Part shown: positions 12,201-12,796 of the stretch, one piece after another
Numbering within the stretch: position 1 is the first letter of the stretch
Layout: each line of letters begins with the position of its first letter
Source: Parachlamydiales bacterium
GTDB lineage: Bacteria; Chlamydiota; Chlamydiia; Chlamydiales; JAJFMK01
Length of the DNA: 64,000 nt
Direction: 5' to 3'
Assembly (NCBI GenBank): GCA_963765145.1
Contig: CAVXVG010000005.1
Span: 94,748 to 158,747 of the forward strand
Translations under genes and position numbers: made by a program
The notes under the pieces: model-generated
Seen by the model: the letters and a program-made list of their open reading frames with translations, nothing else
What the model was told of the DNA's origin: nothing
Databases searched by the model: none

Positions 12201-12623
12201 TCAAATAACAGAATGAATTTTTGGGTGATGTAGTCTTTTGTATTCTAACTTCATATTTCCAAAATTCAACAATAAACCTACAGGTAAATCTGTGACTTTG
12301 AGGTAATTAATTACTTGCGCCTGATGCTCGGGCAGTAAGCATTTACAAGCCTTCAGTTCAATGATTACCTTTTTTTCTACAATGAGATCTACCTTATAAA
12401 GGCCAACAACATGGTTTCTAAAATTAACGTTAAATGGTTGTTCTATATCAACAGAAAATCCATTTTCTTTTAGATAAACATAAAGAGCATTTTTATAAAC
12501 TGTTTCTAAAAAGCCATTCCCCAATTCGTCCAAGATTTCGAAGGAACTTTCTAAAACAGCAGAAGTTAACTCTGCAAATAACAAGTCGTTTTTATCCACG
12601 CCCAATTGAATCATCTTGGCCAC
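12201..12623 (-). CDS. GxxExxY protein (PD-(D/E)XK nuclease-like)
   Basis: GFLETVY = GxxExxY; DLIV...IELK catalytic-type motif; QVINYL; GLLLNFG. Confidence 0.92.
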   Translation of the reverse strand: MAKMIQLGVDKNDLLFAELTSAVLESSFEILDELGNGFLETVYKNALYVYLKENGFSVDIEQPFNVNFRNHVVGLYKVDLIVEKKVIIELKACKCLLPEHQAQVINYLKVTDLPVGLLLNFGNMKLEYKRLHHPKIHSVI

Positions 12624-12668
12624 CCCGACAATTTCATAAATCTACCTAGGATAAAACATTGTAGAAAA

Positions 12669-12796
12669 AATAACAGGGTGAACAGGATGAACAGGATAAG
12701 CTCCGCCGAGGCAAAGATTTCTTTTTCTCTTATTTTTTCCACTTTTGAATAGATCTGGGCGAAGCTTATCCTGTTCATCCTGTTCACCCTGTTATT
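12669..12796. repeat. Inverted repeat with 9-nt periodic arms (AACAGG(A/G)TG) directly upstream of the GxxExxY gene
   Basis: 39-bp arms 12669-12707 / 12758-12796, one mismatch, 50-nt spacer. Confidence 0.95.

Follow-up and report, generated by a model that had tools for sequence, protein, structure and literature searches.

A GxxExxY gene and its 9-nt-periodic palindrome as one insertion unit in a Parachlamydiales genome

Repetitive extragenic palindromes (REPs) and the REP-associated tyrosine transposases (RAYTs) are the described system closest to the locus reported here. As presented in parts of PMC3337134, PMC5581495, and PMC3733652, a single-copy gene for a Y1/HUH transposase (PF01797) lies beside members of a dispersed and far more numerous family of short palindromes, whose arms are conserved, whose spacers are variable, and whose type is specific to the protein lineage, with no evident target duplication; in the part of PMC3733652 that defines them, REPs are 20–40 nt long and carry a GTAG or CGTC tag. 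Apart from the enzyme and the tag, these features recur in a stretch of 64,000 nt from a Parachlamydiales bacterium (the window; contig CAVXVG010000005.1, positions 94,748–158,747 of the forward strand, assembly GCA_963765145.1), to which all positions below refer. Its segment 12172–12830, 659 bp on the minus strand, is one insertion unit polymorphic among close relatives, and consists of a palindrome, a GxxExxY open reading frame (ORF), and a degenerate arm end. It differs from REP/RAYT systems in that the sole match of its ORF is a PD-(D/E)XK nuclease family (PF13366) instead of the Y1/HUH transposase, that the arms are tandem 9-bp arrays instead of tagged REPs, that the GxxExxY ORF lies between the arms in most loci, and that the gene is horizontally spread across phyla at 55–72% identity. 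The unit is not a member of the REP/RAYT systems, because the defining Y1 transposase is absent.

Insertion sequences (ISs) with their miniature inverted-repeat transposable elements (MITEs) also have long gene-bearing and short gene-less forms with common ends, and show insertion polymorphism, but the unit encodes no transposase of the DDE, serine, or tyrosine type, and any target duplication amounts to at most 1 nt. Intervening sequences of 23S rRNA, which encode PF05635 proteins, are similar in that a long inverted repeat, inserted into transcribed sequence, holds a small ORF in its loop; they differ in protein fold, in a period of 6 instead of 9 nt, and in residing in rRNA, as opposed to an mRNA operon here. 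The function of PF05635 is called uncharacterised in a part of PMC11270868. Integron attC cassettes with their GTTAA-like ends were set aside by description, since attC sites are without periodic arrays and the cassettes reported here are solitary.

A link between gene and arrays is not described in the searched literature on GxxExxY/PF13366, PF05635, chlamydial repeats, and REPIN/RAYT (the TIGR04256 curators' text and supplements were outside the search), and the array strings had one bacterial match there, a PCR primer. Literature naming GxxExxY contained nothing on function, NCBI labels the family members only as 'GxxExxY protein', and PF13366 is listed as 'Unknown' in a part of a PD-(D/E)XK survey (PMC3424549). 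This suggests that the present system, with a PD-(D/E)XK nuclease, is a new variation on the pairing of a gene with dispersed palindromes.

The insertion unit and its repeat family

Contigs of four metagenome runs were aligned to window positions 11400–13900. In three of these runs (X1, X2, and X4, from three studies), contigs join position 12171 directly to 12831, skipping 659 nt. Identity of these empty-allele contigs to the window is about 94%, with 46 of 772 and 25 of 414 letters being different, and the joint has sides of 255, 118, and 122 nt with one ambiguous letter. The empty allele has a TAATG overlap of opcA stop and pgl start, while another contig, 91% identical, contains the filled form over 12094–12478. 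The palindrome and the gene are thus present or absent as one among close relatives. The initial annotation had taken the gene and the arms for a mobile or domesticated unit, and this is borne out by an empty allele lacking exactly gene and palindrome, as well as by array types that track the protein subfamily (below). No target-site duplication was found at the joint beyond 1 nt; an ATGAAA occurs close to either end, but out of register, and does not convince. The indel boundary on the opcA side is 37 nt outside the first 9-mer, which is the exact onset of the weak outer-flank conservation of the repeat family (GCATCAAC...). On the pgl side, it is 35 nt outside the degenerate unit 12207–12215.

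Profile matches agree with the earlier placement of the GxxExxY gene between opcA and pgl in a zwf-opcA-pgl run. The opcA-like gene (12831–13790) and pgl (11438–12181) are both on the minus strand, and according to profile matches and the empty alleles the ancestral start of pgl is the ATG at 12172–12170. An empty junction, for which a search in relatives had been proposed, was found: 28 out of 30 pgl loci of related genomes have no GxxExxY gene in zwf-(opcA)-pgl, and in the congeneric genome G002 opcA stop and pgl start overlap (TTATGA). The sole orthologue at the same position is in G001, also of the same genus and with pgl 80% identical; its protein is 64% identical to that of the window, with a dN/dS (ratio of nonsynonymous to synonymous substitution rates) of about 0.12 at saturated dS. 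Conservation of the gene at this position without repeats had been named as evidence against the link, and in G001 an arm-like hairpin of matching type (AACAGGGTAAGCAAGATCGCC-AAC-GGCG...) lies upstream of the orthologue. As G001 is filled and a much closer relative is empty, the history of the site includes a precise loss, a replacement by recombination, or two entries into the same site.

The inverted repeat 12666–12710/12755–12799 has 45-nt arms, 93% complementary, with 44 nt between them, and the palindrome lies 45 nt upstream of the ORF start. Each arm consists of three AACAGG(G/A)TG 9-mers followed by AAGCTYCGCC; 39-nt arms of this composition, 12669–12707/12758–12796, had been reported earlier and are readable in the sequence. 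In the proximal arm (12666–12710), the array begins 49 nt from the ORF start. The loop (12711–12754, 44 nt) shares no sequence relationship with those of other copies. The distal arm (12755–12799) consists of three 9-mers and AAGCTTCGCC, its first 9-mer being 12785–12793 (AACAGGGTG on the gene's minus strand). It is followed by a 37-nt outer flank (12794–12830), which reaches the indel boundary and resembles the weakly conserved GCATCAACCTAAG...ATAAAWWT flank of other copies; the spacer between ORF start and palindrome (12624–12665) is mostly the element's other outer flank. As single-stranded DNA, the palindrome folds at −45.4 kcal/mol (z = −12.7), and none of 200 shuffles was as good.

A degenerate single arm unit, AATAACAGAATGAA, covers the last codons of the ORF (12204–12217). 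The match to 12669–12682 noted earlier, 12 of 14 positions, is present. Genome-wide, 74 such 14-mers (at most two mismatches) were found outside full arrays, about half of them judged to be real short arms. Since such 14-mers are rare outside arms, a correctly oriented one at the gene's stop is unlikely by chance (roughly 3e-4 in our own post hoc estimate). The flank beyond the degenerate unit resembles the family flanks only weakly (p ~0.03).

The ORF (12201–12623, minus strand) encodes 140 aa from a GTG start at 12623, with an alternative ATG at 12614. Its product matches PF13366 (PDDEXK_3; E 1e-37, 129.5 bits against a cut-off of 22) and TIGR04256 (GxxExxY; E 6e-38, 129.8 bits against a cut-off of 35). 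The motif G37-F-L-E40-T-V-Y43 and the PD-(D/E)XK residues D79 and E89-L-K91 are present. In an alignment of 58 family members, from which one row with an internal stop was left out, E40, Y43, D79, and K91 show no variation, and at least 90% of the sequences have E89. The AlphaFold2 model (pLDDT 91.7, pTM 0.83) had Cas4 SSO0001 (4ic1) as the best Foldseek match (E 2e-5), with lambda exonuclease, Cas4 Pcal_0546, Hjc, and tRNA-splicing endonuclease as further matches. The PD-(D/E)XK fold ascribed to the protein at the outset agrees with the conserved residues, the confident model, and these nuclease-fold matches, and the product is predicted to be an intact small PD-(D/E)XK nuclease with a Cas4/lambda-exonuclease-like core. 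With Cas4, lambda exonuclease, and RecB-type nucleases, which include the best structural matches, it has the E...D...ExK residues in common. From Cas4-type nucleases it differs in comprising the core only (~125–140 aa), without Fe-S cysteines and without CRISPR context. A sequence search of the PDB with the window protein gave nothing meaningful among solved structures. At E ≤ 1e-3 the window protein hits 12,830 cluster representatives, a number that falls to 2,789 at E ≤ 1e-10; it represents a divergent subfamily, 23–36% identical to the main GxxExxY family. Some family members of ~250–275 aa have two tandem domains and are possibly covalent dimers.

The assembly is 2.68 Mb long, in 37 contigs, and 84.8% complete. 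A profile search found exactly one PF13366 gene there. The genome-wide count of arms, proposed with the initial annotation, gave 71 AACAGG arm arrays, far beyond chance, the reversed control pattern giving 0. They form 24 close pairs and ~20 ends whose partner array is shorter; an end profile adds ~23 more ends at E < 0.01, which brings the family to roughly 45–50 elements. The arms are arrays of three 9-nt units ending in (A/T)TAAC, with no GTAG/CGTC tag. A gene-less copy had been placed at 56829–57012 and was found at 56822–57019 (arms 56822–56873/56968–57019), between an ABC permease gene and an acyltransferase-like gene. Between elements, the arms are 92% identical and the loops 49%, about the level of unrelated sequence in that alignment; pairwise identity of the 37-nt outer flanks is 40%, compared with 25% for random 37-mers. 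The gene-less palindromes are dispersed, with conserved arms and unrelated loops. As the arms are conserved while the rest drifts or differs, the pattern is closer to REPs than to a recent MITE burst, and the short forms are not simple internal-deletion derivatives, because their loops resemble neither one another nor the gene-bearing unit. AACAGG arrays are abundant in this genome only; G001 and G009 have one match each with two mismatches, and the other 38 related genomes none.

The 21 transposase-family matches in the genome (Y1, DDE_1, rve, DDE_3) are all at least 1459 nt from an array, mostly more than 11 kb away or on other contigs; all six PF01797 matches are at least 11.8 kb from any AACAGG array. 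The GxxExxY ORF, 49 nt from its array, is unlike any transposase match in this respect. A full-length IS bearing the arms was considered and rejected, as the sole long-range arm pair (contig C5:43818–46189, outside the window) is two separate elements with two unrelated ORFs. These two AACAGG elements lie around ORFs of 469 and 217 aa in a possible composite arrangement.

Gene-array pairing in other genomes

The presence of a PF13366 gene was compared with that of CACAGAG arrays, the type belonging to the main family, in 41 related genomes. Gene and arrays are both present in 14 genomes and both absent in 20; four have the gene without arrays and three have arrays without the gene. The table is descriptive and not a test statistic, because the genomes are kin. 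Equal abundance of the repeats in genomes lacking the gene had been regarded as contrary evidence; of the 23 related genomes in which it is absent, 20 are also free of arrays. Arrays outnumber genes, with 69 arrays and two genes in G001, 77 and eight in G009, and 25 and three in G035.

At 12 chlamydial loci, the typical arrangement has (T)TAACC-ACAGAGnnC x3 before the ORF and nnCTCTGTG x3-GGTGA/GTTAA right after the stop. For a wider sample of the main family, 80 loci with proteins 54–72% identical were fetched with the main-family alignment, one genome per species. They come from at least ten phyla (Chlamydiota, Chloroflexota, Acidobacteriota, Planctomycetota, Bacteroidota, Verrucomicrobiota, and Cyanobacteriota among them) and from some archaeal metagenome-assembled genomes (MAGs), including records labelled Methanophagales and Methanosarcinales. 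An array lies within −45 to +150 nt of the stop in 54 of the 80 loci, the inverse array upstream in 50, and both in 42; the opposite orientation was found in 13 and 12 loci, respectively. Counted per locus, 63/80 have CACAGAG-type arrays. The heptamer CTCYGYG is kept across loci of 35–69% G+C content. Among 123 steps between units, the spacing is 9 nt in 68, 10 nt in 26, 8 nt in 15, and 11 nt in 14.

The window subfamily was represented by 80 metagenome loci whose proteins have 49–64% identity with that of the window. Their arrays are of the (A/C)ACAGGAT type, and the hairpin upstream of the G001 orthologue is a recurrent form among them; ATCCTG-type arrays were found in 47/80 loci, and arrays on both sides of the ORF in 17/80. 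When 75 distinct proteins of each set were compared, ATCCTG/CAGGAT-type arrays accompanied 43 of the subfamily and none of the main family, while CACAGAG-type arrays accompanied 58 of the main family and none of the subfamily. Shuffled windows had an array in 0/1600 cases in either test, and the enrichment of repeats near GxxExxY genes anticipated by the initial annotation is evident. Arrays are few far from the genes: 15 in 112.8 kb lying more than 400 nt from main-family genes, and six in 67.5 kb for the subfamily. The pairing of gene and array is general and subfamily-specific.

A motif-blind test of periodicity found period 9 in 29/77 downstream and 23/77 upstream windows of the subfamily, where periods 5–8 and 10–13 gave 0–6, and in 0/45 and 1/46 distant windows. 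For the main family, period 9 was found in 10/80 and 8/80 windows against 0 distant ones. A second array architecture, of four units spaced 10/11/10 with a TAAC tail, requires three changes on a tree of 49 distinct proteins versus 10.9 when shuffled, and 0/500 shuffles were as low; its clade mixes Chloroflexota and Flavobacteriia. Array architecture thereby tracks the protein tree across phyla. In Bacteroides finegoldii, the radA stop is followed by 2 nt, a TTCACC-array, the ORF (annotated only as 'GxxExxY protein'), an array-GGTGAA, and, after 5 nt, the next ATG. Main-family proteins had no match in the phage collection and was found in 8/72,556 plasmid records, so no phage or plasmid vehicle is evident.

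A candidate selfish system and competing explanations

The reading preferred here is a gene-plus-repeat selfish system, in which the nuclease would read the arm units and cut, and the single gene would maintain and spread the gene-less copies in trans. We give it about even chances. The unit is inserted into the overlapping opcA stop and pgl start without a readable target duplication. The nuclease would recognise the repeated 9-bp arm units, in duplex form or in a hairpin that is extruded or single-stranded, and its cut would start copying, gene conversion, or transposition of arm-bounded DNA. Maintenance and spread of gene-less palindromes by a single gene would follow the RAYT/REPIN logic with another enzyme fold. 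The initial annotation had likewise supposed that the protein recognises and spreads these palindromes as RAYT does for REPINs, and this half of its reading remains an inference.

Several observations weigh against this selfish system. Co-inheritance alone shows a shared unit and not recognition, because the flanks are physically linked to the gene. The array patterns were written after seeing the data, while the period test was motif-blind. The degenerate unit 12204–12217 (core 12207–12215) is probably a vestigial second end, with modest support from its letters and place, and an nhmmer profile of the element ends does not detect the gene's 3' end. In the G001 orthologue, Q replaces E89 and the first canonical start is at residue 31, yet the gene looks constrained. 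No main-family GxxExxY gene was found in the present, 84.8%-complete assembly, despite its 21 CACAGAG arrays.

The remaining contrary points also favour the explanation that survives best beside the selfish system, though we regard it as rather unlikely: the palindrome would be a vehicle moved by host functions or by transposases of other elements, and GxxExxY would be cargo, a loop-invading homing endonuclease, or an addiction or defence gene, which does not spread the gene-less copies. Passenger amplification of this sort is seen in G014, a 1.9-Mb chlamydial genome with 67 PF13366 matches (loci L026–L043). There, an array-ORF-array cassette follows the end of an IS5-like transposase gene, ahead of the IS terminus, in a ~700-bp unit of at least nine copies, 94–98% identical; dozens of internally deleted cassettes retain both arrays, many of them without the first ~65 codons, and the 9-mer copy number varies between copies. 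This cassette is amplified by the IS5-like element as a passenger, and those of a Waddliaceae MAG, with seven loci sharing an identical downstream flank, apparently are as well. The CACAGAG hairpins of G001 form the middle of a longer repeat, of 230 nt or more (loci L165–L179, L023:7455–7690), one copy of which lies between the orthologous GxxExxY gene and pgl. Arrays without the gene were found in G026 (18), G036 (5), and G033 (1).

An identical layout surrounds genes of PF05635, four-helix-bundle proteins which are not nucleases: inverted 6-nt-periodic arrays around the gene at four chlamydial loci. The single PF05635 gene of the present genome is flanked on both sides by inverted copies (C26:202631–203062), and in one of the three other chlamydial genomes with this layout the unit is GTAACC. 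The layout is therefore not dependent on an encoded nuclease. The present genome has 90 (GGGCAN)≥3 arrays against one for the reversed control, among them 10368–10400, 23712–23762, and 45794–45838 in the window.

Presence or absence at a single exact site, with duplication of no more than 1 nt, is also the outcome expected of homing or recombination. Free-standing PD-(D/E)XK homing endonucleases exist, e.g., I-Ssp6803I. The unit resembles them in its small PD-(D/E)XK protein and in presence or absence at one precise site (alleles 91–94% identical), and a palindromic target would suit a symmetric oligomer. It differs in having no intron or intein, and dispersed gene-less repeats are not a known feature of homing endonucleases. 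The opcA|pgl site had no earlier palindrome, so the insertion was not homing into a loop. The cargo explanation is further opposed by the lack of a transposase gene near AACAGG arrays in this genome. The complete separation of array types (0/75 cross-type arrays both ways) and the heptamer core kept at 35–69% G+C argue that the protein reads the arrays, as the selfish system supposes.

The arms could instead act mainly in RNA, as a stem in the operon transcript that is processed (e.g., by RNase III) or stabilising and insulates the ORF as in 23S rRNA intervening sequences, with mobility being secondary. We consider this improbable as the main explanation. It would suit cassettes in very tight same-strand gaps, such as the opcA/pgl overlap and the 2-nt and 5-nt distances in B. 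finegoldii, and the arrays on both sides of the ORF in 42/80 main-family and 17/80 subfamily loci. However, an RNA stem needs complementarity only, and would place no demand on heptamer conservation, on a period fixed at 9 nt, or on units specific to a subfamily; the ~45–50 gene-less copies with conserved arms are left unexplained, and Rfam gave no family matches, only sub-threshold hairpin matches. An insulating RNA stem may coexist with either the selfish system or the cargo explanation.

Chance adjacency of a common palindrome and an unrelated conserved gene is hardly credible and contradicted by the data: although the window holds many other palindrome families and ~45–50 copies would put one beside a few percent of genes (rough estimate), gene and palindrome are gained or lost together, the identical array type lies beside subfamily genes in unrelated metagenomes, and G001 has an arm-like hairpin at the same place.

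More broadly, we propose tentatively, and rather doubt than believe, that GxxExxY and 23S_rRNA_IVP proteins define an undescribed class of selfish elements. These would be cassettes that cross phyla and the bacteria-archaea divide without transposase, phage, or plasmid, that encode a small sequence-reading protein flanked on one or both sides by inverted tandem arrays of its own 9-bp or 6-bp recognition unit, and that seed genomes with and keep dozens of gene-less palindromes in trans, a REPIN-like symbiosis which would have arisen independently. By a rule that GxxExxY genes are accompanied by subfamily-specific 9-bp-periodic inverted arrays, and their genomes by many gene-less copies, a very large family of no known function would gain a concrete, testable job, with a substrate predicted per protein, and B. 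finegoldii is a cultured, tractable example. If the selfish system is real, it would bring a second, mechanistically unrelated enzyme into gene-repeat partnerships of the REP/RAYT type, account for intergenic palindromes of a class ignored by annotation, and suggest a similar reading for the 23S_rRNA_IVP family. Protein-array pairs with readable specificity could become programmable DNA-recognition modules.

Neighbouring genes and other repeats

The zwf gene (13790–15292, minus strand) completes the run. Between zwf and the next gene lies a gene-less CACAGAG-type palindrome (15311–15504; C5:110063/110222), the type that flanks main-family GxxExxY genes elsewhere. The 21 CACAGAG arrays of the genome have two geometries, with TTAAC ends outward or facing the loop. 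Promoter and terminator scans of 12000–13000 gave scores no better than shuffles. An N-terminally truncated copy of the subfamily gene was found elsewhere in G002 (L025:5900–6293), followed by a 9-nt-periodic ATCGTT array inside which the contig ends.

The window also contains a classical REP/RAYT system, distinct from the AACAGG family. At 24265–24954, a RAYT-like ORF of 180 aa (24390–24932, plus strand) with a PF01797 match is flanked by GCGGGTTAAAACCCGC-type hairpin repeats, which recur at 33737–33850 and 59636–59703. The genome is unusually rich in intergenic palindromes. Other long ones in the window are at 5954–6144 (39-nt arms, 100%), 9455–9667 (a nested pair), and 52410–52506 (48-nt arms, 96%), and a 2.5-kb stretch on another contig (C20:109000–111600) is packed with 9-nt-periodic AACCATTCA/AATCATTCA arrays. 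Window positions 28666–29984 and 40182–41500, 11,516 nt apart, are 66–80% identical over at least 1.3 kb and are probably paralogous genes.

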